From an uncultured Clostridia bacterium (lineage in GTDB: Bacteria; Bacillota; Clostridia; TANB77; CAG-508), in the NCBI GenBank assembly GCA_934184665.1, contig CAKPSX010000005.1:1-60132 (forward strand): a stretch of 60,132 nucleotides of DNA. Reading direction: 5' to 3'. Both the position numbers and the translations under genes were made by a program. The notes under the pieces are model-generated. The model worked only from the letters and a program-made list of their open reading frames with translations, searched no databases and had not been told where the DNA came from. This document shows positions 2,700 to 42,291 of the stretch, in pieces (position 1 is the stretch's first letter; the number at the start of each line of letters is the position of its first letter).

Positions 2700-5600
2700 A
2701 TGAAAAAGAAACGAATGATAATTGTAATAATGATAGTTGTTATATCATTATTAATTACAGGAATGACAATATTTGGTGTTAAGTTCAAAAATGAGGTTAG
2801 TTCTAATGCTACGGAGGTAAGCAATAATAATGCTAATAACAATATTGACTTACCACGAACAGAGGCCAATCTTAAATCATCAAGCTCGTATAATGATGAA
2901 TATGCTTCATTTAATACGAAAGAGCTTCAAAAAATTATGGATAAGCTATCAGATGAAGGTGGTGGAACAATCCATATTTCTTCAGGTACATATTATTTTA
3001 AGTCTGCAGGAATGAATACTGCTAAAACAGAAGATTATGCTATAAAATGTAGAGATAATATAACAATAATAGGAGATGGAACAAACGACAATTCAGGAAC
3101 AATATTAAAACCATATGGTGTAACAAGTATTGGTTTAGACATGTTTTATTTTAATGATTATTCAGATACAGGAAATGGAAATTATCTAGTAAATGCCGAT
3201 TTTAGGAACTTTATTATAGATGGGGCAGAGGCAAATACACAGCAATATACTACTGCGGGCAAAGGATTTATGATTAATATATTAAGAGATTGCGACTGGG
3301 AAAATGTTAAAGTAATGAATACTGATGCTACTGGCTTTGGAATGGATTGCCCTATTAATTGTACAATAACTAGATGTGTTGCAATTAATTGTGGAAAAGC
3401 AGCAACGACAAGTAGTGCAGGAGCTTCAGGATTTGGAATAGGAACAGGGTACAGTGATCAAGAATATATGCATATAAAAGATTGTATTTCAACAGAAAAC
3501 AAAAAATTTGGTTTCTTTTTTGAACATCAGGGAAGATTTAATGAGCAAAAATATACGGCATCAAGTAGTAAGGGCTTTGTAGTATCTAACTGTACGGCAA
3601 GTGGAAACTTATATGACATAGGTGGTAATAGGGCAAATGATGTTACATACGAGAATTGTTCTGCTGATACTTATTTTCAATTTGAGAATAATTCAAGAAG
3701 AATACATTTGATAAATTGTAAAGCAAATATAGAATATTCAGATGTTACAGATAGTTCAGAGTATTATTATGAACCAATTTATTGGGCTCTTAATAAAGGA
3801 ATTACCTTAGGGGTTTCGGAAACAGAGTTTGCTCCAAGGCAACAATGTACAAGAATACAAGCAATAACATTTTTATGGAGAATGGATGAATTACAAGGTG
3901 ATGTTGTGTATGGTAGAACTCCATATATAGAAACAGGATTTGAAGATGTTGATGGAAGCGATGAATATGCATGTGCAGTAAAATGGGCAGAAGATAAGGC
4001 AATCATTGATGGAGTATCTTCAAATGTATTAAAACCAGAAACAGAATGTACAAGAGCAGCAGCAATTACAATGCTATGGAGATATGCAGGAAGACCATAT
4101 GCAAGAGGAACTAATAGTTTTATAGATGTTGAAGAAGATTCTTGGTATAAGGATGCAGTTAATTGGGGTGTTTCAGAAGGAATAATAGATGGGATGACAG
4201 AGGATACATTTGAACCTAATAGAATATGTAAAAGAGCTGATATAATTACAATGCTATATAGATATTCTATGGGAGAAAATGAGTTTAATATTACATATAA
4301 TCTTAATGGGGGAACTAGTAGAAGAGGCAATCCTGATACGTATGTAGCAGGGGAAGATAGTTTTGATATTAGTAATCCAATAAAAGATGGATATACATTT
4401 GAAGGATGGACAGGCAGTTGCTATTCATCTGAAGGTTATATGGGAGTAGATAATTATTCTCCAATGCAAAATGCTGGAGTTAAGTCAAGAGATAGAGGGC
4501 ATAAAGCTTATTCAGCTAATTGGAAGGCAAATAGTTATACAATTTCATTTAATCCTAATGGTGGCTCAGGAAGTATGAATGATCAGAGTTTATCATATGA
4601 TTCTTCAAGACCACTGTTAGAAAATACATTTATGAAAGATGGATATGTATTTGAAAAATGGAATACTAGTCCAAATGGAACAGGAAAAGACTATGACGAT
4701 AAAGAAATAGTATGTAATTTAACTAATGTTGATGGCAAAAAGATAACATTATATGCGCAGTGGACTAAAATAAAGGAAGAAGATAAAATTGAATATACAG
4801 TTGAACATTATAAAGAAGAATTAGATGGAAAATATAGATTAGCTGAAACTCAAACATTAATAACACAAAAGGGTAGCAAAGTAACACCAGAGGTTAAAAA
4901 TTATACGGGATTTAGTGCTCCTAATAAGATAACTCAAGAAATAAATGATGAAGGAACTATAATAAAATATCAATATACAAGGAATTCATATAAAGTTACT
5001 ATTACAAAGGGTTCTAACATAGATACTGCATCAGGTGATGGAACATACAAGTTTGAGCAAAACGTAAAATTATATGCTAGTGCGAAAAAAGGTTATGGAA
5101 ATATCAAATGGAGTGGAGATAAAAATACTGATGAATTTACTATGCCAGCTAATGATGTAAATATTAATGTAGATGCTTCAAAAGTAATGTATAAAATAAC
5201 ATATGATTTAGATGGTGGATATGTATCTGGAAATTTAAATGAATATGATGAAAATACACCTTCATTTAAATTAAATAATCCGACAAAGAGAGGATATACA
5301 TTTATAGGTTGGACAGGAAGTAACGGAACTGTGCCTCAAAGTGATGTAACAATATTAATGGGTTCAAGTGGTAATCTACAGTATAAAGCAAATTGGAAAA
5401 AACTTGAAGAAGAGCCTAAAAAGGAATATTCTGTTACAATAACAAAAGGAGATAATATAGAAAGTGTATCAGGTGATGCAACTTATGAAAAGGGACAAAA
5501 AGTTACATTGACAGCAATCCCTAAAAAGGGTTATGGAAATATTGAATGGAGCGGTGATAAGATAGTAAATCAGTTTTACATGCCTGATAGAAACTTAAAT

Positions 5601-16112: not shown

Positions 16113-16141
16113 TTGAAAACAAAAATAAGTTGTGATATAAT
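16113..16141 (+). promoter_or_regulatory. Sigma-A-type promoter for the tRNA gene
   Basis: TTGAAA (16113-16118), a 17-nt spacer, then TATAAT (16136-16141). The tRNA 5' end lies 10 nt downstream. Confidence 0.7.
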
Positions 16142-16151
16142 AATGGCAGAT

Positions 16152-16227
<76 letters not shown>

Positions 16228-17517: not shown

Positions 17518-17546
17518 TTGCAAAAATTTGTATTACAGTATATAAT
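17518..17546 (+). promoter_or_regulatory. Sigma-A-type promoter for the SRP RNA
   Basis: TTGCAA (17518-17523), a 17-nt spacer, then TATAAT (17541-17546). Confidence 0.7.
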
Positions 17547-17555
17547 AATACCAGT

Positions 17556-17684
17556 GTGAGATTAATCTCTGTATGGAGAGCAAGCTCAATAAAAGCCTAT
17601 GAACCTTGTCAGATCCGGAAGGAAGCAGCAATAAGTAGATACTTTTATGTGGGTACTTGTTTTCCATAGAGAGATTAATTTCAT
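17556..17684 (+). ncRNA. ffs: Signal recognition particle RNA (short, 4.5S-like single hairpin)
   Basis: - Contains gtcagatccGGAAggaagcagc, matching the conserved SRP domain IV (GUCAGGUCCGGAAGGAAGCAGC).
- The flanks pair: gagattaatctctgtatgga with tccatagagagattaat, ataaaag with cttttat, and caag with cttg.
- It occupies the classic Firmicute position just upstream of dnaX-ybaB-recR.
- The ends are approximate. Confidence 0.8.
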
Positions 17685-26096: not shown

Positions 26097-26125
26097 TTGA
26101 CAATTTAGTTGTATTTTGCTATAAT
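26097..26125 (+). promoter_or_regulatory. Consensus sigma-A-type promoter upstream of the three-gene coupling-protein cluster
   Basis: TTGACA (26097-26102), a 17-nt spacer, then TATAAT (26120-26125). This leaves a ~95-nt leader before ATG 26226. Confidence 0.7.
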
Positions 26126-26225: not shown

Positions 26226-26753
26226 ATGGAGATGTTACAAGGTAAACATTTCAGTATAACAGATCCAAAAGGAGTAAATACAGTAATTTATCAAGTTAAT
26301 AAAACAAAAAAGGAATTTTTAAAAGATTATCCTAAATATACAGTTGAGAGGTTAGATTTTACAGAAGAACTTAGAGGAGAAAATTCTAGAAAAACCTTTT
26401 ATGTTGATGAGCCACAAACAAATGGGAATCGATTAGTTATATTATCATTTGGAAAAGAGAGTGTAGTAATAAACTCTGGAATACTAATTGATGATGAAGT
26501 TAGAATATCAAAGACACCAACACCATTTAAATTTAATACATTATATTCAGAAGAAGAACAGGAATTTAAAGAATTTAACTATACCCCAAATATGAAAAGA
26601 GATATTTGTGTTATAGACCCTGAAACTACAGAAGAATTAAGACCTAGACTTTATTTTGATGAGAAAGAAAATAAAGTAAAGGGAAGATGCAAATTAAAAC
26701 CATATAAATCTTATTTCGCATTTGAAATAAGAGAGGATGATGGAAAAGTTTAA
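26226..26753 (+). CDS. Hypothetical protein (175 aa), first gene of the coupling-protein cluster
   Basis: ORF with SD gaggtg upstream. No family recognised. Confidence 0.5.
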   Translation: MEMLQGKHFSITDPKGVNTVIYQVNKTKKEFLKDYPKYTVERLDFTEELRGENSRKTFYVDEPQTNGNRLVILSFGKESVVINSGILIDDEVRISKTPTPFKFNTLYSEEEQEFKEFNYTPNMKRDICVIDPETTEELRPRLYFDEKENKVKGRCKLKPYKSYFAFEIREDDGKV

Positions 26754-26768
26754 GGAGGTCAATTTACT

Positions 26769-27065
26769 ATGGCAGAAAGCACAGTAAATGAAAGAAGGTT
26801 CCCAAAAGAAATAACAGACACAGATGGGATTAAAGATGGAGAAGCAAAATTTTATTATATTAAGTTGGAACCAAATGAAAAGTGTAAAATAAGGGCAAAG
26901 AAAAATGAGAAAAAGCCTAGTATACCTTTCATTGAAACTTCAAGAAGAGATGGACAAATTAGTAATGAAACAAAGGAATATGTAGCTGTTAAAGTATATC
27001 CTGCAGGAAAGCCTAAAAAAGAGAAAGAAATAAAAAAGATAGAGATTGATGAAAAGTCATACTAA
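26769..27065 (+). CDS. Hypothetical lysine-rich protein (98 aa)
   Basis: ORF with SD aaggagg upstream, tightly spaced between its neighbours. No family recognised. Confidence 0.5.
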   Translation: MAESTVNERRFPKEITDTDGIKDGEAKFYYIKLEPNEKCKIRAKKNEKKPSIPFIETSRRDGQISNETKEYVAVKVYPAGKPKKEKEIKKIEIDEKSY

Positions 27066-27098
27066 AATAATTTTAACCAAAGAGAAGGTGATTTTACT

Positions 27099-29150
27099 AT
27101 GAACTATAAAGTAGAAGGTGCGATAAGAAGAAATAAAAAATATTTTATAATTTTTGCCATACTATGGCTATTTGCAGCCATAGTATTAATCATGCCTGCG
27201 GTACTTGGATTTAATGCTGGTATGAATGGACAAGATCCAATAGAAGTATTTGTAGGAGCAATGACAAATCCGATAAAAAGTCTAGGGCAGCTTGCAACAC
27301 AGCACTTATTTGCTCAGTATTTTAAAGCATTAGGTGGATTTACAATAATATTTGCATTATTTTTTGTAATAGGAATTGCAAGATCAGCACCTAAAAGCGA
27401 ATATACAGACTTTGAACATGGATCAAGTGATTGGAGCAAAAATGGAGAACAATATCAAGTATTAAGCAATAAAAAAGGAATAATATTAGCAGAAGACAAT
27501 TATTTACCTGTTGATAAAAGGGGTAATGTTAATGTATTAGTAGTCGGTGGTTCAGGTTCTGGTAAATCTGCATCATATTCAATACCAAATGCATACCAAA
27601 TGCTAGGGTCATACGTGTTTACAGACCCTAAAGGTGAACTTTATGACAAAACAGCAGGATTTTTAAAAGAAAATGGATATGACATAAAAGTATTAAATCT
27701 TGTAAAACCACAAAATAGTGATGGATATAATCCATTAATGCATATATCATCAGAAATAGATGTTGATGTTATTGCAAACACAATAGTAAAAGGTCAAAAA
27801 ACAGGAGATGGTGGGTCAGACCCATTCTGGGATGATTCAGCAGAAATGTTATTAAAAGCATTAATATATTATTTACTTGCAACAAGACCTGAAGAAGAAC
27901 AAAATTTAGCAAGTTGTGCTGAATTGGTTAGAGCAGCAAATTCGAATGGTGGAAGTAACTTACTTACTGAATTAATTAGTAAACTTCCTTATGACCACCC
28001 AGCAAGAATGAACTATAAATCAATTGAAATAGCACCAGAAAAAACATATAGTTCAATATTAAGTACATTACAATCAAAATTAGGAAAGTTCGACTCAAAG
28101 GAAATTGCAGAAGTAACATCAACAGATACAATAAATTTCGAAGATATTGGAAACAAGAAAACAGCGGTTTATGTTATATCTTCAGATACACATACAGCAT
28201 ATGATTTCTTATTAACAATATTTTTCTCACAAATGATACAACAATTATATAATTATGCAGATGATAATGGCGGAAAATTAAAAGTTCCAACATATTTTAT
28301 ATTAGACGAGTTCGCAAATATAGGTAAAGTGCCAGACTTTGATAAAAAAATATCAACATCAAGAAGTAGAAAAATATCATTTAGTGTAATATTACAAAAC
28401 TTAGACCAATTAGAGGCAGTATATGAAAAATCATATGAAACTATAATTGGTAACTGTGATACACACGTATTCTTGGGCAGTAACTCTTATAAAACTGTTG
28501 AATATTTCTCAAAAGCTCTTGGTGAAAAAACAATTGAAAGAGATAGTATATCAGTAAACAAAGATAGACAATATTTTAGAACTGGTATAAGTAAATCAGA
28601 CCAAGTTATGGCAAGAGCATTGATGACACCTGATGAATTAAGAAGAATGGATAATGATTTATGTATTATATTTGAAAAAGGTATAAGGCCTGTAAAAGCA
28701 AATAAATTCTATTATTTTAAACATAAAAAAATAGTAAATGCACTTGCTAAAACAGAAATGAGTCATAATGCTACAAGAGATTTAAAAAGAGGAGAATGGA
28801 GAAAATTCAATCCATATAATCCTTGGACAGAAGATAAATCAGAAAAAGAGGCACAAGACTTAAAGGTTGAATCTTTAGATGATTTATTTGAAGAAAAGCA
28901 AGATGAAAACACTGTAAAAGAAGTTAAAAAGGAAACAAAAAGGAAAACACCAGTAAAAAAAGAAGAACAAAAACAAGAAGAAATACAATCAATAGATAGT
29001 TTATTTGATGATGAATTAGAGTCAATTCCAACAGATTCAACAAATAATGTATCAAATGCAATTCAAGAGGAAGAAGAAGATTCTTATGATTTACAAAAAG
29101 AATTAGAGGCAAAGTTTGATGAATTATTTGGCCCAATTGATGATAATTAA
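27099..29150 (+). CDS. Type IV secretion coupling protein, VirD4/TraG family
   Basis: - Two N-terminal TM helices are present.
- Walker A is VVGGSGSGKSASYSIPN.
- The Walker B context is YFILDEFANIG.
- The C-terminal tail is acidic and Lys-rich. Confidence 0.8.
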   Translation: MNYKVEGAIRRNKKYFIIFAILWLFAAIVLIMPAVLGFNAGMNGQDPIEVFVGAMTNPIKSLGQLATQHLFAQYFKALGGFTIIFALFFVIGIARSAPKSEYTDFEHGSSDWSKNGEQYQVLSNKKGIILAEDNYLPVDKRGNVNVLVVGGSGSGKSASYSIPNAYQMLGSYVFTDPKGELYDKTAGFLKENGYDIKVLNLVKPQNSDGYNPLMHISSEIDVDVIANTIVKGQKTGDGGSDPFWDDSAEMLLKALIYYLLATRPEEEQNLASCAELVRAANSNGGSNLLTELISKLPYDHPARMNYKSIEIAPEKTYSSILSTLQSKLGKFDSKEIAEVTSTDTINFEDIGNKKTAVYVISSDTHTAYDFLLTIFFSQMIQQLYNYADDNGGKLKVPTYFILDEFANIGKVPDFDKKISTSRSRKISFSVILQNLDQLEAVYEKSYETIIGNCDTHVFLGSNSYKTVEYFSKALGEKTIERDSISVNKDRQYFRTGISKSDQVMARALMTPDELRRMDNDLCIIFEKGIRPVKANKFYYFKHKKIVNALAKTEMSHNATRDLKRGEWRKFNPYNPWTEDKSEKEAQDLKVESLDDLFEEKQDENTVKEVKKETKRKTPVKKEEQKQEEIQSIDSLFDDELESIPTDSTNNVSNAIQEEEEDSYDLQKELEAKFDELFGPIDDN

Positions 29151-30045: not shown

Positions 30046-30074
30046 TTGACTAATGGTCATAATGGTAATATAAT
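30046..30074 (+). promoter_or_regulatory. Sigma-A-type promoter of the MMPL operon
   Basis: TTGACT (30046-30051), a 17-nt spacer, then TATAAT (30069-30074). The track's TTG start at 30046 is this -35 box. Confidence 0.7.
30047..30059. promoter_or_regulatory. Candidate TetR operator copy 2 (TGACtaatgGTCA), overlapping the -35 box
   Basis: Palindromic half-sites TGAC/GTCA separated by 5 nt. Confidence 0.55.
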
Positions 30075-32205: not shown

Positions 32206-34104
32206 ATGATTAAAGAAAATTTAGGTAAAAGAATAATAAGTAGTGTATTATTATGTTCAATGATTGGCTACACAATGCCAGTATTTGCTTTAACAAAAGA
32301 AGAAACAGTATATTCTAAGCTTAACAATGAAGGTTCTTCATATAATACAATTGTAAGTACACATATAAAAAATGAAGAATTATTACAGATAATAAATGAT
32401 ATGTCAGATTTATTAAATATAAAAAATGTTGGTGGAGATGAAAGTTTCAAAGTTGATAATAATTCAGTAGTATGGAATGCAGGTGAAAAAGATATTTATT
32501 ATCAAGGTGAAGCTTCAAAAGAATTACCAGTTCAAACATCTATAAAATATGAATTAAATGGAGAAGAAATATCAGCAAAAGATATTGCTGGAAAAGATGG
32601 AAAGGTTAAAATTACTATAGAATATGAAAACAAAGACGCACACACAGTAAGTGTAAGAGGAAAAGACGAAACACTTTATACACCATTTATAGTAATTACA
32701 GGAACAGCTATTGATAATGAAAAAAATAAAAATATTGAAATTTCTAATGGTAAAGTGATTGAAAAAGATGGGGAAACTGTGGTTCTAGGAATTGCATTCC
32801 CTGGATTACAAGAAAGTTTAAATCTTGAAAAAGATACAGTAGATATTCCAAATTCAGTTGAAATTACAATGGATTCAACAGATTTTGAATTAGAAAATAT
32901 GCTTACTTATATAACACCAAGAGCCCTAGAAGATGATACAGATGATATTACTGATAAAATAAATGATTTATATAAATCAGTAGATGACATGAAAACAGCT
33001 AGTGAAAAAATCCAAGATGGTGCTAATACATTAAAAGATGGAACAGCAGAATATTCAGAAAAATCAGCAGAATTTAACGGATATATGGGTGAACTAGCAA
33101 AAGGAACACAAGAAGCAGAATCAGGTGCAAATGCTTTATCAAGTGGAATAAATCAATTATCATCAAAAACAGGTGCATTAGTACCAGGCGTAAATAAATT
33201 GGTAGAAGGTTCAGAATTATTAGATACAAAACTTAATGATGCTGTTACAGCAACAGGAAAAATATCAGCAGGAGCTCAAGATGTAAATAAAGGAATTCAA
33301 AATGTTTCAGCAGCAATTGATGGAATAAATACAAATTTACAAGCAACAGATACATCAAATTTAGAGGCTAAGGTAGCAAGTTTAACAAAAGCAAAAACAA
33401 ACTTAAGTAATTTAAACACTGCATTAGAAGCACAAATAGCAGCAAATAGTGAAAATCAAGAATTAGTTGCATTATTAAAACAACAAGTTGAGATGAATAA
33501 TGCATCAATACAAGCGTATGATAGTAATATTACTTCATTAAAATCTACAGCAACTCTTAAAGCAACAATAGCAGCAGTAAAAACTGGACTTGATGGAGAT
33601 GGAACAGAAAAAAATCCAGGTTTAAAAGCTGGAGCTAAAGGTCTTGCAAGTGGTACGGCAGAACTTGATACAGGATTACAATTAATGAGTACAAAAACAG
33701 GAGATTTAGTATCAGGTGTAAAAGAATTATCAACAAAATCAAAAACATTAATTGCAGGTGTTAATCAAATAAAAGCAGGTGCGAATTCATTAAATACAGG
33801 TGTTTCTCAAATAAATACAAGTACAAATACTTTAAGCTCTGCAAGTACACAATTGTCAGATAGTTCAAAAGCAATTGCAAATGGTATGGAAACATTATCA
33901 AGTGGAATAAATGAATTCAACAGCCAAGCAATTGATAAAGTATATAACTTTGTTGAAAATGATGTTAAAGATTTAACAGAAAGATTAGAACAGTTAAATG
34001 ATTTATCTAAAGAATATATTAATTTTGCTATGAAAGATGAGGCAATGAATGGGAATGTTAAATTTATAACAATTACTGATTCAATAAAAAAAGAGAATAA
34101 GTAA
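32206..34104 (+). CDS. Secreted YhgE/Pip-N-terminal-like protein with LxxG heptad (coiled) repeats
   Basis: A signal peptide is present. A long Ala/Thr/Asn-rich region carries recurring ...L..G heptads (GANALSSGINQLSSKTGALVPGVNKLVEGSELL...). It is a common partner of MMPL transporters in Firmicutes. No C-terminal TM segment is seen. Confidence 0.6.
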   Translation: MIKENLGKRIISSVLLCSMIGYTMPVFALTKEETVYSKLNNEGSSYNTIVSTHIKNEELLQIINDMSDLLNIKNVGGDESFKVDNNSVVWNAGEKDIYYQGEASKELPVQTSIKYELNGEEISAKDIAGKDGKVKITIEYENKDAHTVSVRGKDETLYTPFIVITGTAIDNEKNKNIEISNGKVIEKDGETVVLGIAFPGLQESLNLEKDTVDIPNSVEITMDSTDFELENMLTYITPRALEDDTDDITDKINDLYKSVDDMKTASEKIQDGANTLKDGTAEYSEKSAEFNGYMGELAKGTQEAESGANALSSGINQLSSKTGALVPGVNKLVEGSELLDTKLNDAVTATGKISAGAQDVNKGIQNVSAAIDGINTNLQATDTSNLEAKVASLTKAKTNLSNLNTALEAQIAANSENQELVALLKQQVEMNNASIQAYDSNITSLKSTATLKATIAAVKTGLDGDGTEKNPGLKAGAKGLASGTAELDTGLQLMSTKTGDLVSGVKELSTKSKTLIAGVNQIKAGANSLNTGVSQINTSTNTLSSASTQLSDSSKAIANGMETLSSGINEFNSQAIDKVYNFVENDVKDLTERLEQLNDLSKEYINFAMKDEAMNGNVKFITITDSIKKENK

Positions 34105-34110
34105 AATAGA

Positions 34111-34138
34111 AGGACAATACAAGCGAGTATTGTCCTTT
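34111..34138 (+). terminator. Intrinsic terminator of the MMPL/YhgE-like operon
   Basis: aggacaatac (34111-34120) pairs with gtattgtcct (34127-34136). The loop is 6 nt and a short T tract follows. Confidence 0.65.
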
Positions 34139-34200
34139 AGTAATATATTAAATAAATCAGTAAATAGAAAAACTAACTATCACTGTAGTTTTACATAAAA

Positions 34201-34229
34201 TTGACATCGAAATAAAATCATGGTATAAT
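34201..34229 (+). promoter_or_regulatory. Near-consensus sigma-A-type promoter with extended -10, dedicated to the foreign CDS
   Basis: TTGACA (34201-34206), a 17-nt spacer, then TGgTATAAT (34221-34229). GGAGG at 34251-34255 lies 10 nt before ATG 34266. Confidence 0.7.
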
Positions 34230-34265
34230 TAAGGTACATCTTTATTATTTGGAGGGTTATATACC

Positions 34266-35237
34266 ATGACTACTAACAACAAGCTGAACAACGTCACCGT
34301 TATCACCTCTGGTTCTCTGGCTAAGTCCGGAGGCATCCAGACCGTGACCCGGACGCTCTTTGAGAGCGTGATGCCCATCCTCTACCTCGACAAGGAGGGC
34401 GAGGATAACGTTAAGATCAAGCTCAAGGATAGCAACAGCATCCTGTTCTCTGGGTTCGACGATCAGTTCGTCAATCTGGCCAATTGGGCCAAAGAAGAAG
34501 GCAAGAAGGTCGCAGTGTTCTGGCACTTTGCTTGTGCTAGTGAGGTCGATCCTGACCTGGGAGCTGCTTGGCGGTCGCTGTTACCTCTGCTCTGTGGAGG
34601 TAAAATCGATCTATTTGTAACTTGCAAGTACGGACAGCCGGAAATCGTTGAGAAACTGTTCGGAGTCAAGACTTTCTTGATTTTGAACAATTCCTTGGAG
34701 AATTCCTATAAGGATGAACCCAAGAACGGAATCGGAATCTTTTCTGGTTCTAGTGATTACTGGGTCAAGAATTTACGACCCAACCTGTATGCTTCTCTAA
34801 TGACAGAGAAGCAAGTGGATATTGTTCCTTATGAGGACAGTATCCGTAACATGGTTAAGACCATGGGCGTGGAAGACAGGGTAACTGGTGAATCTCGACT
34901 GGAACATTCGCTGTTCTTGAAGAGAATGGCCAGCTGTGAACTGGTTACTTACGTAACCTTCGCAGAAGGGGCACCAATTCTCCCCTTGGAGGCACTTAAC
35001 AATGGTGTTATCTGCCTGACTGGAGACAACCACAACTACTTCACAGATGATCAGCGTCTGCGGGACTTTCTGGTCTGCACCAGACCTGACGACCCCTATG
35101 CAATCTACAGGGCTATTGAGATAGCTCTGGAGAACAAGGACGAGATTCTGCATCGTTACTACCGCTGGAAGATGCGGTATGATGAGGAGCAGAAGCAGAA
35201 CTTCAACCTCTTTATTGAGGCGTTGAAGAATATGTAA
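34266..35237 (+). CDS. Compositionally foreign CDS (323 aa): compact GT-B fold, GT4-like glycosyltransferase candidate
   Basis: - It is a clean ORF with its own SD.
- The C-terminal half aligns by eye to the GT4 pattern: IGIFSGSSDYWVKN (G..S....KN/G), then ...VTYVTFAEGAPILPLEALNNGVICLTGDN with E234-x7-E242 (EX7E, nt 34965-34991).
- The N-terminal TVITSGSL..SGGIQT resembles the GT4 glycine-rich loop.
- Its G+C and codon choice are unlike every other gene in the window. Confidence 0.7.
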   Translation: MTTNNKLNNVTVITSGSLAKSGGIQTVTRTLFESVMPILYLDKEGEDNVKIKLKDSNSILFSGFDDQFVNLANWAKEEGKKVAVFWHFACASEVDPDLGAAWRSLLPLLCGGKIDLFVTCKYGQPEIVEKLFGVKTFLILNNSLENSYKDEPKNGIGIFSGSSDYWVKNLRPNLYASLMTEKQVDIVPYEDSIRNMVKTMGVEDRVTGESRLEHSLFLKRMASCELVTYVTFAEGAPILPLEALNNGVICLTGDNHNYFTDDQRLRDFLVCTRPDDPYAIYRAIEIALENKDEILHRYYRWKMRYDEEQKQNFNLFIEALKNM

Positions 35238-35242
35238 CCCTA

Positions 35243-35273
35243 AGAGAGAGGCTATTGCCTCTCTCTTTTTTTT
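35243..35273 (+). terminator. Textbook intrinsic terminator of the foreign CDS
   Basis: agagagaggc (35243-35252), loop tatt, gcctctctct (35257-35266), giving a perfect 10-bp stem. The T run extends to 35273 and begins 5 nt after the stop codon. Confidence 0.85.
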
Positions 35274-35405
35274 GAAGCAAAAACCGAAAAAGTTTTCGCA
35301 AAACTCTTGAAAAAAATAAAAAAATAGTATAGAATGTAAAAATATTAATTATAAACAAGTAGAAAAGATTTTTATTTTTTTATTTGTTTTTGGAAAGGAG
35401 AAAAT

Positions 35406-36470
35406 ATGAGGTTTGTACATATAGCAGATATGCACTTTGATTCACCATTTACAACATTATCAGATAAAGGAAATTTAGGCGAGATAAGAAGAATGGAACA
35501 AAGAAAAATATTTAAAAAAGTAATTGATTATATAAAAGAAAATAAAATAGAATTATTATTTATTTCAGGAGACTTATATGAACATCAATATATAAGAAAA
35601 TCTACAATAGAATATATAAATAATTTATTTAAAGAAATAAATAAAACAAAAATATTTATATCTCCAGGAAATCATGATCCATATTTAAAAAAATCATATT
35701 ATAATGATTTTTCATGGAATGAAAATGTACACATTTTTAATTCTCAAATTGAAAAAATTGAATTAAACAATTTAGATATATATGGATATGGCTTTGATGA
35801 TTTTTATTGCTCAGAATCGAATTTAGAGAGCCTTAAAATTGCTAATCCTGAAAAAACAAATATATTAATAATACATGGTACACTTGATGGTTCAACAGCA
35901 GAGGAAAGACAGTATAATCCTATGAGCAAAAGAATGCTGATAGAAAAAGGCTTTGACTATGTAGCTTTAGGGCATATACATAAAACTAATTTTACTCCAG
36001 AGGAAAGAATTATTTATCCAGGCTCAACAATTTCATTAGGTTTTGATGAGCTCGGAAAACATGGAATGGTAGTAGGAGATATTGAAAAAAATAAAATAGA
36101 ATTTATTGAATTAGATGAAACAGAGTTTGTAGAAAAAGAAATAAAATGTACAGAAATATTTTCAATTGAACAATTAATTGAAAAAATAAATGAAATAAAT
36201 ATAGAAAAAAATAAATTATATAAAATAATATTAACAGAAAAAAGAAATTTTGAAATAAATATATATGATATTTATAAATATGAATTAAATGAGAGAATAA
36301 TTAAAATAAAAAATAAAACAAAACCCAATTATGATATAGAAAAAATTTCAAAAGAAAAAACATTAAAAGGTTTATTTGTTAAAGAAATGATGGAAGAAAT
36401 AAAAAAGGAAATTTATGATGATGAAATTTTAGAAAATGCATTAGAAATTGGAATAGAAATATTAGAATAA
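35406..36470 (+). CDS. Metallophosphoesterase DNA-repair exonuclease (SbcD/YhaO-like)
   Basis: Contains MRFVHIADMHFDSPF, GDLYEH, GNHD, and GHIH calcineurin-like motifs. Confidence 0.8.
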   Translation: MRFVHIADMHFDSPFTTLSDKGNLGEIRRMEQRKIFKKVIDYIKENKIELLFISGDLYEHQYIRKSTIEYINNLFKEINKTKIFISPGNHDPYLKKSYYNDFSWNENVHIFNSQIEKIELNNLDIYGYGFDDFYCSESNLESLKIANPEKTNILIIHGTLDGSTAEERQYNPMSKRMLIEKGFDYVALGHIHKTNFTPEERIIYPGSTISLGFDELGKHGMVVGDIEKNKIEFIELDETEFVEKEIKCTEIFSIEQLIEKINEINIEKNKLYKIILTEKRNFEINIYDIYKYELNERIIKIKNKTKPNYDIEKISKEKTLKGLFVKEMMEEIKKEIYDDEILENALEIGIEILE

Positions 36471-38551
36471 TGGAGGGATTTATTTTGAAAATAAATGAAA
36501 TAAAAATAAATTCATATGGAAAATTAAAAAATAAAAAAATAAATTTAAATAAAAATATTAATATAATATATGGAGAAAATGAAAGTGGAAAATCAACATT
36601 ATTAAAATTTATTTTAAATATTTTTTATGGAACATCAAAAAATAAAAAAGGAAAAGAAATATCTGATTTTGAAAAATATAAGCCATGGAATTCAGAAGAA
36701 TTTTCTGGAAAATTATCATACGAATTAGATAATAAAAATAAATATGAAATATTTAGAGAATTTAATAAAAAAAATCCAATAATATTTAATGAAAAAGGAG
36801 AAGAAATTACAAAAGAATTTAATATAGATAAAAATAAAGGTAGTGAATTTTTTTACGAACAAACACAAATAAATGAGGAAATGTTTCTTGCAACATCAGT
36901 TTCATTACAACAAGAAGTAAAAATTAGCAAAAATGAGCAAAGTATGTTAGTACAAAAAATATCTAACTTGCTAGGGACAGGGGAAGATAAAATTTCATAT
37001 AAAAAAGCAATTGAAAAAATAAATAAAAAACAATTGGAAGAAGTTGGAACTGAAAGAAGTAGAGAAAAACCTATAAATATTCTTGAAAAAAATATAAAAG
37101 AAAATGAGGAAAAAATAAACCAATTAAAAAAATACCAAAATATTCAATATGAAATTGAAGAAGAAAAAAAAGAAATAAAAAATAAAATTAAAATAGAAAA
37201 AATAAAAAATAATTTATTAAAAGAAATAAAAAAAATAAAAGAAAAAAATAATTTGGAAAATGAAAAAATAAAAATAAAAGAAAATATAATAAAAGAAAAT
37301 AAAAATAAAATTCAAGAAATAAAAAATAAAATAGAAAAAAATGAAATAAAAATCGAACAAGAAAATAATAATAAAAAATATGAAGAAGAAAAAAATAAAA
37401 TAAAAAATAAAAACAAAAAAAATAAAATAATTTTTATTTTTTTAATAATTATTTCTTTGCTTTGGATAATATTTTCTCAAAAAATAATTAAAAATATATT
37501 TGCTAATTATTTAATATTAATTATTTTACCGATTTGTTTTATTGCTTGGAAAATAAGCAAAAATAAAAATAATAAAAAAATAAATAAAATAGAAAAAAAT
37601 AAAAATAATATTATAAAAGAATTAAATGAAGAAAAAAATACATTAATAAATGAAATAAAAATAATAGAAAAAAATTCCAATGATTTATTAAATGAAATAA
37701 ATAAAATAAAAAAAGAAAACGAAAATATAAAAATATTAGAAAAACAAAAAATAATAAATAATTATTTTTATGACATGAAAAAAATAGAATTAAATTCTAA
37801 TCAAAAAAACAATAATAATTATTTATTTAACTCTGAAAATAATAATTTAATATTTAATTTCGAAAATTCAGAAAATAATTTAAAAAATATAGAAAATAAA
37901 ATTAATTTATTATTAAATTCGGAAAAAATAGAAAACGAATTAAATTCTTCAGAAAATATAATAAATAATTTAAAAATGGAAATAAATAAAATAGAATTAA
38001 AAAAAGAAAATATTGAACCATTACTTGATGAATTATCAAATATTGAAGAAAAATTATATTCACAAAAAGAAGAATATAAAAATTTACAAAAAATTAATAC
38101 TAGTATAGAATTAGCAAAAAAAATATTAGAAAGAGCATATGAAAAAATGAAAGATAGTGTTAGTCCGATATTCACAAATAAATTATCAGAAAATATATCT
38201 GAAATAACAAATAAAAAATATACTAATATTTATTTTGGAGATGAACAGGGATTAACAGTTGAACTTGAAAATGGAAATTATGTTCCAGTAGAAAGATTAA
38301 GCATTGGAACAATTGACCAATTATATTTATCACTTAGGCTAGCAATGTTAGATGAGATTTCAAAGGAAAAAGTACCTATTATTTTAGATGAGGCATTTGC
38401 TTATTATGACAATGAAAGATTAGAAAATATATTAAAATATTTATATACGAAATTTAGTGATAGACAACTTATAATATTAAGTTGTACAAAAAGAGAAAAA
38501 GAAATCCTAGAAAAACAAAATATAGAATTTAATTTTGTAGAGTTAAATTAA
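36470..38551 (+). CDS. AAA/SMC-like ATPase partner of the exonuclease (SbcC/YhaN-like) with central TM hairpin
   Basis: - Walker A is YGENESGKSTLLKFI.
- A very long K/N/I/E coiled-coil region is interrupted by two hydrophobic helices (IIFIFLIIISLLWIIF, ILIILPICFIAW).
- The C-terminus has LSIGTIDQLYLSLRLA and IILDEAF (signature and Walker B).
- The real start is probably TTG 36485 (MKINEIKINSYGKL), 8 nt after GGAGG at 36472-36476. Confidence 0.75.
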   Translation: MEGFILKINEIKINSYGKLKNKKINLNKNINIIYGENESGKSTLLKFILNIFYGTSKNKKGKEISDFEKYKPWNSEEFSGKLSYELDNKNKYEIFREFNKKNPIIFNEKGEEITKEFNIDKNKGSEFFYEQTQINEEMFLATSVSLQQEVKISKNEQSMLVQKISNLLGTGEDKISYKKAIEKINKKQLEEVGTERSREKPINILEKNIKENEEKINQLKKYQNIQYEIEEEKKEIKNKIKIEKIKNNLLKEIKKIKEKNNLENEKIKIKENIIKENKNKIQEIKNKIEKNEIKIEQENNNKKYEEEKNKIKNKNKKNKIIFIFLIIISLLWIIFSQKIIKNIFANYLILIILPICFIAWKISKNKNNKKINKIEKNKNNIIKELNEEKNTLINEIKIIEKNSNDLLNEINKIKKENENIKILEKQKIINNYFYDMKKIELNSNQKNNNNYLFNSENNNLIFNFENSENNLKNIENKINLLLNSEKIENELNSSENIINNLKMEINKIELKKENIEPLLDELSNIEEKLYSQKEEYKNLQKINTSIELAKKILERAYEKMKDSVSPIFTNKLSENISEITNKKYTNIYFGDEQGLTVELENGNYVPVERLSIGTIDQLYLSLRLAMLDEISKEKVPIILDEAFAYYDNERLENILKYLYTKFSDRQLIILSCTKREKEILEKQNIEFNFVELN

Positions 38552-38602: not shown

Positions 38603-38696
38603 AATTATTTGAATCCAAAAAACTTAAAAAAAATATTTAAAAATATGGATATATATGTTATAATTGTATTTGATTAGTATTTGGAGGGAAATTATA

Positions 38697-39059
38697 ATGA
38701 ATAAGATGCCTAAAAAAACCAAGAATATCATTAAGGAGTTCGTAAAGCAAATAAATAATTTACTAGGGGATAGAATAAAAAAAGTTATTTTATATGGTTC
38801 TTATGCAAGAGGAGATTATAAGGATAATTCTGACATTGATATTATGATACTTACGGATTTAACAGATGAAGAAATAATTGAGTATAGAGAACAAGTGTCC
38901 AATATTGCATTTGATATAGAATTTGAAAATGATTTTGACATAACTATATCACCATTGATAAAAAATATAAATAAATTTGAATTTTGGAAAAATGTGTTAC
39001 CATTTTATATGAATATTCAAAAAGAGGGAGTGATTTTAAGTGAATCAAAAACTATCTAA
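38697..39059 (+). CDS. Minimal nucleotidyltransferase (MNT) antitoxin of a HEPN/MNT module
   Basis: Contains the LYGSYARGDYKDNSDIDIMILTD (GS..RG......SDxD) Pol-beta-type NTase motif. ATG 38697 follows ttggaggg. Confidence 0.85.
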   Translation: MNKMPKKTKNIIKEFVKQINNLLGDRIKKVILYGSYARGDYKDNSDIDIMILTDLTDEEIIEYREQVSNIAFDIEFENDFDITISPLIKNINKFEFWKNVLPFYMNIQKEGVILSESKTI

Positions 39060-39435
39060 AGATTTAGCAATACATAGACTTGAACAAGCAAGAGAAGATT
39101 TAGAAGCAGGTAAATTATTGTATGATAAAAATTTTTATAAATCTGCAAACAATAGAGCATATTATTCAATATTTCACAGTATAAAATCTATCCTTGCATT
39201 AGAGAGAATTGATTTTAAAAAGCATAAAGATGTGCTAGCATATTTTAATAAAAACTATATTAATAATGAAATTTTTCCTAAAACAATGGGTAGGAAAATC
39301 CATAGTGCGAGTTCTATGAGAGAAGATAGTGATTATGATGATGAGTTTATAGTGGATGCTAGTAAAACTAAGGAACAATTAAATACAGCAGAAGAGCTTA
39401 TTGATTTAGTTGAAAAATATATAGAAAATAATTAA
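39040..39435 (+). CDS. HEPN-domain protein (putative toxin of the HEPN/MNT module)
   Basis: It is helical and contains RAYYSIFH (R-x6-H). The GTG start overlaps the MNT gene by 20 nt, the typical bicistronic arrangement. Confidence 0.75.
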
Positions 39436-41826: not shown

Positions 41827-42291
41827 ATGAAGAAGAAGAAATTCATGATGATGGTGATGGCAGCGATTATGCTGCTGAGTGTTGCTTGTACAGCAAGTGC
41901 AAGCTGCCAGGTACAGAAGCCAATTAAGGTATACTATAATGGCATAGCAATTAACTTCCCAGATCAACAACCTATGATTGTCAGTGGTAGGACTATGGTT
42001 CCTGTTCGTGCAATCGCTGAAGCTCTTGATTATGATGTTCTATGGATTGCAAAGGACAACGAAGTGCAGCTTTATCAGCACTTAGGAGAAGGGTTTGTTT
42101 TTTGGAAGATAGGTGAAAACACTTATCGGACTAATCACGATAGTATAGTTGATGCAGGATGTGCACCAATTGTCCTGAATGGGCGTACCATGGTGCCCAT
42201 CAGATTCGTGGCGGAACAGCTCTCCAGCTTAAATGTAGAGTTTGTACAACAAAAATATCAAGATTTCGTCTTCTTAAACGAGAAGGATTAA
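41827..42291 (+). CDS. Secreted protein with two copper-amine-oxidase N-terminal-like (stalk) repeats
   Basis: A signal peptide is present (MKKKKFMMMVMAAIMLLSVACTASA). There are two copies of the ...P.IV.GRTMVP.R..AE.L... motif. G+C is elevated (25/60 in each of the first two 60-nt blocks by hand count). Confidence 0.75.
   Translation: MKKKKFMMMVMAAIMLLSVACTASASCQVQKPIKVYYNGIAINFPDQQPMIVSGRTMVPVRAIAEALDYDVLWIAKDNEVQLYQHLGEGFVFWKIGENTYRTNHDSIVDAGCAPIVLNGRTMVPIRFVAEQLSSLNVEFVQQKYQDFVFLNEKD

Follow-up and report, generated by a model that had tools for sequence, protein, structure and literature searches.

How does a single gene of strongly foreign composition come to stand, with a promoter and terminator of its own, between chromosomal operons of an AT-rich gut bacterium? 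The question is raised by a 60,132-nt contig of an uncultured Clostridia bacterium (CAKPSX010000005.1, assembly GCA_934184665.1), the whole of which we call the window. Its region 34141-35405 holds a single open reading frame (ORF), 34266-35237 on the + strand, which codes for a 323-amino-acid (aa) GT-B/GT4-like glycosyltransferase (GT). A first-pass annotation had taken this unit for a foreign coding sequence (CDS) that had either captured a host promoter at an intergenic site or been assembled as a designed or chimeric cassette. Having compared the unit with contigs that carry GT relatives or the corresponding YhgE-SbcD site (labelled L002-L030; the window allele is W), we conclude with a probability of roughly 0.78 that it is a natural, insulated single-gene accessory cassette of ~1.09 kb (34185-35275), moron-like although placed in an ordinary chromosome, which carries the expression signals of its own family and whose composition is held up.

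The same locus occurs in other gut communities. The nearest database protein differs by 1 residue and is encoded on a Logan contig that is 98.4% identical to the window across 2257 nt, and other human-gut metagenomes, Hadza and Nepal appearing among their sample names, contain members of its 90% cluster on contigs of 20-150 kb. Gene order on these contigs is identical to that of the window (MurC-DnaJ-x-x-VirD4-like-TetR-MMPL-YhgE-like-GT-SbcD-SbcC-(MNT/HEPN)-PrfA), and allelic divergence at the locus across independent gut metagenomes ranges from 0.1 to 14%. Megablast and tblastn searches against INPHARED and PLSDB gave no plasmid, vector or phage match for DNA or protein, and scanning IMG/VR revealed no GT relatives on viral contigs. 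Given that the same locus is present in independent gut metagenomes (Hadza, Nepal and other cohorts) with natural allelic variation, the cassette is not engineered; an engineered origin is excluded, and the locus is natural and stable. Scans for promoters that look "too perfect" should therefore be read with caution, since an apparent designed cassette is here a natural mobile plug-and-play unit carrying its own signals.

Comparison with relatives that have an empty YhgE-SbcD site bears out the claim that the GT is an insertion. In L023-25 (60% YhgE identity) the whole synteny is kept and only 108 nt, consisting of a terminator and the sbcD promoter, lead from YhgE to SbcD, the GT being absent; the GT is likewise absent from L026 (86% YhgE identity), where the spacer is 209 nt long. 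L029 carries a 70%-identical GT at the same site within flanks nearly identical to those of L026, indicating presence/absence variation among close relatives. L027 carries an 86% GT allele, and its adjoining sbcD is 99% identical to that of the window. Alignment placed the edges of the conserved cassette at ~34185 and ~35275 and thereby delimited its core. To the left lies a variable AT-rich spacer (34139-34184, +), which is missing in L029, is replaced by unrelated sequence in L027 and falls outside the cassette; to the right the insertion is limited by the sbcD promoter block that begins at 35285. The cassette would have entered the spacer between the YhgE-like gene and sbcD after the split from the L023 lineage, and would now be present or absent among very close relatives (L029 vs L026). 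The genes that flank it (MurC, DnaJ, TetR, MMPL, SbcCD and PrfA) are syntenic in a relative without the cassette.

Within these edges the expression signals, all on the + strand, were confirmed at the positions first proposed. The left edge with the promoter (34185-34229) comprises TGTAGTTTTACA at 34184-34195, a -35 element TTGACA at 34201-34206 and, after a 17-nt spacer, the extended -10 element TGgTATAAT at 34221-34229 (TG at 34221-34222, TATAAT at 34224-34229). It matches the sigma-70-type consensus at 12/12 positions and is the sole 12/12 promoter with TG within 29-41 kb. From this near-ideal sigma-A promoter transcription would start near 34236, giving a predicted 5' untranslated region (UTR) of ~30 nt (34236-34265), which is unstructured (fold z +0.96) and carries the ribosome binding site (RBS) GGAGG at 34251-34255; 10 nt separate it from the ATG at 34266, and this short leader would drive translation of the 323-aa protein. 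Rfam models detected no riboswitch or known RNA in the GT leader region. The CDS (34266-35237; GC 0.48, third-position GC content (GC3) 0.61), which is under purifying selection and the most polymorphic of its region, is followed 4 nt past the stop codon by an intrinsic terminator at 35242-35273 (-19.7 kcal/mol, z = -4.7), whose GC-rich stem (35242-35267), described earlier as 10 bp, measured 11 bp and is accompanied by a 4-nt loop and a T run. This strong terminator would end the transcript near 35273. With promoter, RBS and terminator predicted around one gene, the description of the unit as self-contained and apparently monocistronic held. Beyond it, and outside the cassette, begins the host's sbcD promoter block (35285-35335, +), in which the palindrome CGAAAAAGTTTTCG (35285-35298) is followed by TTGAAA-17-TAGAAT (35307-35335).

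Upstream, a hairpin at 34109-34138 (+; -16.4 kcal/mol, z = -8.2) follows the stop codon of the YhgE-like gene (34102-34104) and is the probable terminator of the MMPL/YhgE-like operon. The hairpin previously assigned this role was confirmed, with a weak U tract (UUUAGUAAU). It is confined to GT-carrying haplotypes, with a homologous hairpin in L029 and a different one in the empty-site L026. Exact TTGACA-N17-TATAAT sites in the whole window, the GT promoter among them, number 4 against 0.07 expected from shuffles. Four further promoters had been listed as native and equally perfect; the one at 26097 is indeed 12/12, whereas those at 30046, 16113 and 17518 are 11/12, and other exact promoters of the window lie at 2469 (-) and 56628 (+). 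One near-consensus promoter (16113-16141, TTGAAA-17-TGATATAAT) stands directly upstream of tRNA-Arg(CCT) (16152-16227) and another (17518-17546, TTGCAA-17-TATAAT) directly upstream of the signal recognition particle (SRP) RNA (17573-17670), indicating that strong consensus promoters are native to the host genome.

Relatives that are 40-86% identical to the window GT were found in at least 6 contexts: between rpmB and dinB (L002, L006), between sigE and sigG on the opposite strand (L019, L007), beside a TetR-YhgE/Pip operon (L005), near rplK (L022), after rml genes (L030) and in still other places (L003, L008, L009). In all 12 distinct members tabulated, TGnTAyAAT precedes the ATG by 30-36 nt and a GGAGG-type RBS precedes it by 6-10 nt, and a hairpin follows the stop codon; 8/12 have CC immediately after the stop codon. 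A perfect TTGACA-17-TATAAT precedes the GT of L030, and L027, L029 and L005 share with the window a recognisably homologous terminator. Since promoter type, UTR length, RBS and terminator are kept with the CDS in differing contexts, the AT-rich frame is inherited with the gene. Judged by these sequence comparisons, the AT-rich signals are the GT gene's own "donor-like flanks" and were not acquired at this site; promoter, UTR, RBS and terminator would have come along with the gene across the family.

The CDS itself is, as the first-pass annotation had held, compositionally foreign, with codon usage that is radically non-host. Its GC3 of 0.61 compares with ~0.14 in host genes; the other 44 ORFs of the window lie between 0.076 and 0.28, except for one outlier at 0.42, and the immediate neighbours at 0.08-0.10. 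CTG makes up 49% of the leucine codons in the GT and 0% in host genes, AAG 87% vs 6%, ATA 5% vs 66% and the CGN arginine codons 71% vs 0%. The excess is shared by the family, the GC3 of the gene being above that of the host ORFs in 11/11 contexts: 0.61 against 0.135 in the window, 0.43 against 0.10 in L029, 0.21 against 0.10 in L005, 0.51 against 0.15 in L002, 0.39 against 0.155 in L019, 0.53 against 0.24 in L007, 0.28 against 0.15 in L003, 0.375 against 0.24 in L008, 0.42 against 0.17 in L009, 0.60 against 0.48 in L022 and 0.44 against ~0.15 in L030. The GT of L017, which seemed to lie in a 46% GC context, was excluded; its contig switches abruptly in mid-gene, at ~640, from an AT-rich L016-type GT (99% identical) to 46% GC sequence, has low coverage (~2x) and is probably an assembly chimera. 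Translational selection is unlikely to lie behind the GC3 of the GT: in the host, rpmB has a GC3 of 0.06 and ftsZ one of 0.12, enrichment is the same for codons ending in G and in C, and there is no Akashi-type excess, conserved residues having a GC3 of 0.54 vs 0.60 (p = 0.48).

The outlier is a second monocistronic gene, 41827-42291 (+), which encodes a 154-aa secreted protein with a Cu_amine_oxidN1 domain, has GC 0.42 and GC3 0.42 and is followed by a hairpin after its stop codon. Among three strains 8.8% of its sites are variable, vs ~2% in its neighbours, and its third-position changes from G or C to A or T (S>W) and the reverse (W>S) are balanced, 10:11.

Analysis of allelic diversity revealed that the GT CDS is the most divergent stretch of its region (5.7% vs 0.3-0.5%, window vs L011-13) and that its alleles are mosaic, 19/30 of the minor states specific to L011 matching L027. 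W and L027 differ by a synonymous divergence (dS) of 0.83, while the proportion of synonymous differences (pS) in the adjoining sbcD is 0.03. Between W and L029 synonymous sites are saturated (dS ~3), and GC3 is still 0.43-0.61. At third positions of the flanking genes S>W and W>S changes amount to 0.127 and 0.026 per site, a ratio of 4.9 that leads to an equilibrium GC3 of 0.17; the corresponding figures in the GT are 0.145 and 0.134, a ratio of 1.08 (p = 8e-6 vs flanks). The differences among GT alleles are imported tracts rather than independent mutations; majority-rule polarisation of the GT substitutions was therefore dropped, and we keep only the unpolarised conclusion that the allele classes hold similar GC3 through large synonymous divergence. 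By our calculation, the ancestor of W and L027 would need a GC3 near 1 if the two had diverged by neutral decay at flank rates, and plain amelioration of a single old transfer thus does not fit. We propose that several old allele classes of the GT have persisted and recombine among themselves, and that GC-rich codon usage characterises the entire family in its AT-rich hosts and is not simply decaying. What upholds the GC would be either a GC-richer pool whose alleles replace the resident ones time and again, or a fixation bias that favours GC.

Along the 21-kb alignment of three strains, polymorphism peaks in the segment 26281-27174, with 15-25% variable columns plus indels and a GC of 0.26-0.30; it holds small ORFs just upstream of a VirD4/TraG-like gene. 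That this more diverse segment is AT-rich weakens a blanket explanation by GC-biased gene conversion (gBGC), and the generalisation that hyperdiversity makes GC was weakened as well, GC and diversity being uncorrelated (rho = -0.04) once the two islands are left out.

With these data the competing explanations can be weighed. The composition flips sharply at the ATG and again past the terminator, and the promoter is a perfect consensus, which is what one would expect of a foreign ORF that had captured a resident host promoter at an intergenic site or of a designed or chimeric cassette. The empty sites of L023 and L026, however, hold no such promoter or leader, and relatives at other loci have homologous promoters, UTRs and terminators; the unit with its allelic variation recurs in Hadza, Nepal and other metagenomes, and plasmid, vector and phage matches are lacking. 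Both versions are thus very improbable. A functional tie to the TetR-MMPL-YhgE-like export locus had also been raised as a speculation; as a working partner the GT could, for instance, supply a glycolipid to MMPL or glycosylate the LxxG-repeat protein. In the window the GT and this operon are indeed neighbours on one strand; the GT of L005 and L016 likewise lies next to TetR and a YhgE/Pip-type LxxG-repeat membrane protein, and a ~100-nt sequence that follows the GT in L005 is also present in the YhgE-SbcD spacer of L026. L005 and the window may share history in their contexts, so that the two adjacencies are possibly not independent evidence and the one in L005 is a weak lead. Against a partnership, operon and GT are also found apart: L023-25 and L026 have an intact MMPL-YhgE operon and no GT, the GT lacks such a neighbour in at least 5 other contexts (among them rpmB/dinB, sigE/sigG, rplK and rml), and in the window a hairpin and the GT's own promoter stand between the two. 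We consider a working partnership improbable; the GT would be functionally independent of the TetR-MMPL-YhgE operon.

The two ways in which the GC of the natural cassette could be upheld, repeated replacement and a GC-favouring force on the CDS, are about equally likely. The former is quite possible: a foreign heritage would be kept refreshed by alleles from a mid-GC pool that repeatedly displace the resident ones, recombination taking place either in the flanks or in the conserved ends formed by promoter and terminator, as the cassette circulates among Clostridia of different GC contents. The contexts of the cassette are many and unrelated, near relatives differ in having or lacking it, allele divergence far exceeds that of the flanks with mosaic tracts, and the deepest branch of the family (L018/L022) resides in a 45% GC host and has codon usage like that of the W allele. 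The GC-rich gene at 41827-42291 behaves alike, and the AT-rich hyperdiverse segment at 26281-27174 indicates that diversity alone does not make GC. Yet no donor was seen among the context-readable relatives (40-86% identity), all of which live in AT-rich hosts except L018/L022 (40% identical, host GC ~0.45), and even in the 45% GC host the GT is GC3-richer than its neighbours (0.60 vs 0.48). Phage or plasmid copies are lacking, and W, L027 and L029 have the GT at one site and in one orientation, with a common leader and upstream hairpin, which fits one ancestral insertion.

Possible, too, is that GC is held in place by a GC-favouring fixation bias on the CDS, through selection on mRNA or DNA GC (e.g. 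for transcript stability) or through gBGC, with an own equilibrium GC3 of ~0.5 vs ~0.17 for the genome. Alleles at one site keep GC3 at 0.43-0.61 across the W-L029 dS of ~3, the same neutral-decay calculation for W and L027 with its ancestor at GC3 ~1 speaks for such a bias, the excess recurs in 11/11 contexts, the strength required would be ~1.6 in population-scaled units, and a link between recombination and GC3 has been reported for bacteria (PMC4450053). On the other hand the bias is not translational selection, as rpmB, ftsZ, the codon endings and the conserved-residue test indicate; gBGC should not halt at start and stop codons; the more diverse segment at 26281-27174 (15-25% variable) is not GC-rich; and the logit offset among lineages ranges from 0.5 to 2.3. 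That the GT gene keeps its own GC3 equilibrium of ~0.5 for the long term and family-wide in genomes of ~0.15, by way of a GC-favouring force on the transcribed CDS, we put forward tentatively. If true, it would be a clean natural bacterial case that separates mutation bias from fixation bias, with 41827-42291 as a replicate. Maintenance of the GC excess in place would also offer a tractable test of what holds bacterial GC above mutational equilibrium, comprising 1 kb, many natural alleles and an AT-rich internal control.

Several observations weigh against the reading of the unit as an insulated, inserted cassette of a glycosyltransferase family whose composition is maintained. The junctions show no target-site duplication or att-like repeat relative to the empty sites, there is no mobility gene (integrase or transposase) or tRNA target between 34105 and 35405, and what distinguishes occupied from empty haplotypes is a replacement (1.19 kb vs 118 nt) rather than a clean insertion. 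The transcript ends are predictions only, and the weak U tract of the upstream hairpin makes some read-through from the YhgE-like operon into the GT unit possible. The polarised substitution test is weakened by the imported tracts, and host composition is known only for members on sufficiently long contigs. The window protein scored 21.0 bits with Pfam PF00534 (Glycos_transf_1), under the gathering cut-off of 26.4, and had no match in NCBIfam, PADLOC or PHROGs.

Some relatives do pass PF00534 (P0045 with 29.1 bits; P0021, P0028 and P0029 carry it precomputed), which together with the sub-threshold window protein indicates a divergent subfamily. None of the sources names the family beyond "hypothetical protein", and a sequence profile search of PDB returned no match, the fold search alone being informative. 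The AlphaFold2 model (pLDDT 92, predicted template-modelling score (pTM) 0.86) has two Rossmann-like domains in a GT-B fold, and Foldseek matched 406 PDB chains at E<=1e-3, the top matches all being GT-B/GT4 enzymes. Nearest were BshA, SenB, GtfA and MshA (E ~1e-9), as well as WaaG, with template-modelling (TM) scores of 0.6-0.73 at 12-17% identity. An EX7E motif, as known from GT4 enzymes, in the C-terminal domain (E234-GAPILPL-E242) has both glutamates invariant in an alignment of 27 sequences, in which an SGGI loop and GSxxYWxKN are also conserved. Purifying selection (dN/dS 0.07-0.24) and the prediction of 0 signal peptides and 0 transmembrane segments point to a maintained, cytoplasmic protein. 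The product is, as modelled, a compact GT-B, GT4-like glycosyltransferase of an unannotated family and, by analogy, probably of the retaining type. It would move a nucleotide-activated sugar onto an acceptor, which by analogy with BshA, SenB, MshA and GtfA would most likely be a soluble small molecule, or else a protein or envelope precursor. With BshA (3mbo, 5d00), MshA (3c4q), SenB (8jjt, 8rz3) and GtfA (4pqg) the window GT has in common the two-Rossmann GT-B fold, the C-terminal EX7E and a Gly-rich N-terminal loop, and with SenB its compactness (~320 aa); unlike in the BshA, MshA and SenB systems, bsh, msh and sen pathway genes are not nearby.

An exhaustive hidden Markov model (HMM) search defined a core family of ~9 clusters at 50% identity, each with proteins of 312-335 aa, found in uncultured gut Clostridia only, AT-rich in all but one lineage, with non-industrial human guts among the samples. 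The search thus newly defines an unannotated glycosyltransferase family. Distant matches number ~630, and in many of them the domain is the C-terminal half of a 600-770 aa protein; 6/6 distant proteins scanned with Pfam have an N-terminal DXD-type glycosyltransferase or S-adenosylmethionine (SAM)-methyltransferase domain. In L030 (3434-7701 of a contig from the Clostridia metagenome-assembled genome GCA_022790575.1) a distant member follows an rmlD/A/C/B-like dTDP-rhamnose set, an adjacency that hints at GT function. Between the rml set and the GT lies a 263-aa gene with GC3 of 0.35 vs 0.13-0.16 for the host.

Phage morons (Cumby et al. 2012, PMC3594210) are genes that have been inserted between those of a phage and that form, each with its own promoter and terminator, independent units. 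The GT cassette resembles them in its predicted promoter and terminator around one gene, in a GC unlike that of its neighbours (GC3 0.61 vs 0.08-0.10), in its absence from the same place in relatives and, presumably, in being expressed independently of the surrounding operons. Unlike morons, it lies outside any phage or prophage, is flanked by chromosomal housekeeping and repair genes, has no match in IMG/VR, INPHARED or PHROGs, and has long been inherited at one chromosomal site in several allele classes. From a classical genomic island or integrative element it differs in lacking an integrase or transposase, flanking repeats and a tRNA target (34105-35405). According to the model of Lawrence and Ochman, horizontally acquired single-gene islets reportedly ameliorate toward host composition. 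The cassette shares with such islets its atypical composition and codon usage, its presence or absence among relatives and the empty site, but its composition does not converge on that of the host despite synonymous saturation at the same site, and it is without integrase, tRNA or repeats. gBGC has been described for recombining bacterial genes (Lassalle et al. 2015, PMC4450053); the GT is likewise a recombining locus with raised GC3 and W>S changes over-represented vs its neighbours, yet the effect is very large (GC3 0.61 vs 0.14) and bounded by the CDS, and a hyperdiverse segment nearby is not GC-rich. Nothing about the cassette as an expression unit is unusual; what deserves attention is the GC excess that persists throughout the family, together with the old alleles that recombine.

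Some further features of the locus and its relatives were recorded. A ~100-nt sequence with the core TTTTAGTCGAAnAnTCAAATTGGGTGA is shared by L026 (1965-2075, +), L005 (6985-7090, -) and L016 (~4070-4175, -). In L005 and L016 it stands directly after the GT terminator and begins a truncated M29 aminopeptidase fragment, and the 118-nt segment that fills the "empty" spacer of L026 is homologous, in reverse orientation, to this post-terminator sequence. The homology suggests more than one event at the YhgE-SbcD spacer, and the sequence was perhaps left behind by a further insertion or deletion there. In L022 the promoter-proximal sequence AAGCATTGACTTTTT ahead of the GT (~2930-2990) recurs after the terminator (~4105-4120) before the next small gene, as it does in L018, and looks like a duplicated promoter module. 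The motif TTTTACATAA, found upstream in several relatives, is not claimed as an operator, its position being variable and the DNA AT-rich. Antisense ORFs within the CDS (34257-34526, 34463-34690 and 34797-35153, all -) were dismissed as by-products of GC richness; stop codons break them in L029 and break one in L027 too. The palindrome CGAAAAAGTTTTCG at 35285-35298, ~9 nt upstream of the sbcD -35 element, is kept in the window, L027, L029 and L026 and absent from L023. It is a candidate operator, and it resembles the Gram-positive LexA box CGAAC-N4-GTTCG.

Among the neighbouring genes, the VirD4/TraG-type coupling protein gene (27099-29150, +) has no further conjugation genes close by and lies in conserved chromosomal surroundings (MurC-DnaJ-...-TetR); it is 76% identical and syntenic in L023, which lacks the cassette. 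A nucleotidyltransferase/HEPN pair (38664-39435, +), the nucleotidyltransferase of which matches PADLOC candidate PDC-S09 (E = 2e-25), lies between sbcC and prfA; it is present in the window, L011 and L012 and absent from strain L010, and by sequence it appears to be an accessory toxin-antitoxin or defence-like module. The SbcC-like gene (36470-38551, +) has a GC of 0.16 overall and of 0.09-0.11 over ~800 nt (37100-37900), and its product varies in length, with 554 aa in L011 vs 688-693 aa elsewhere.

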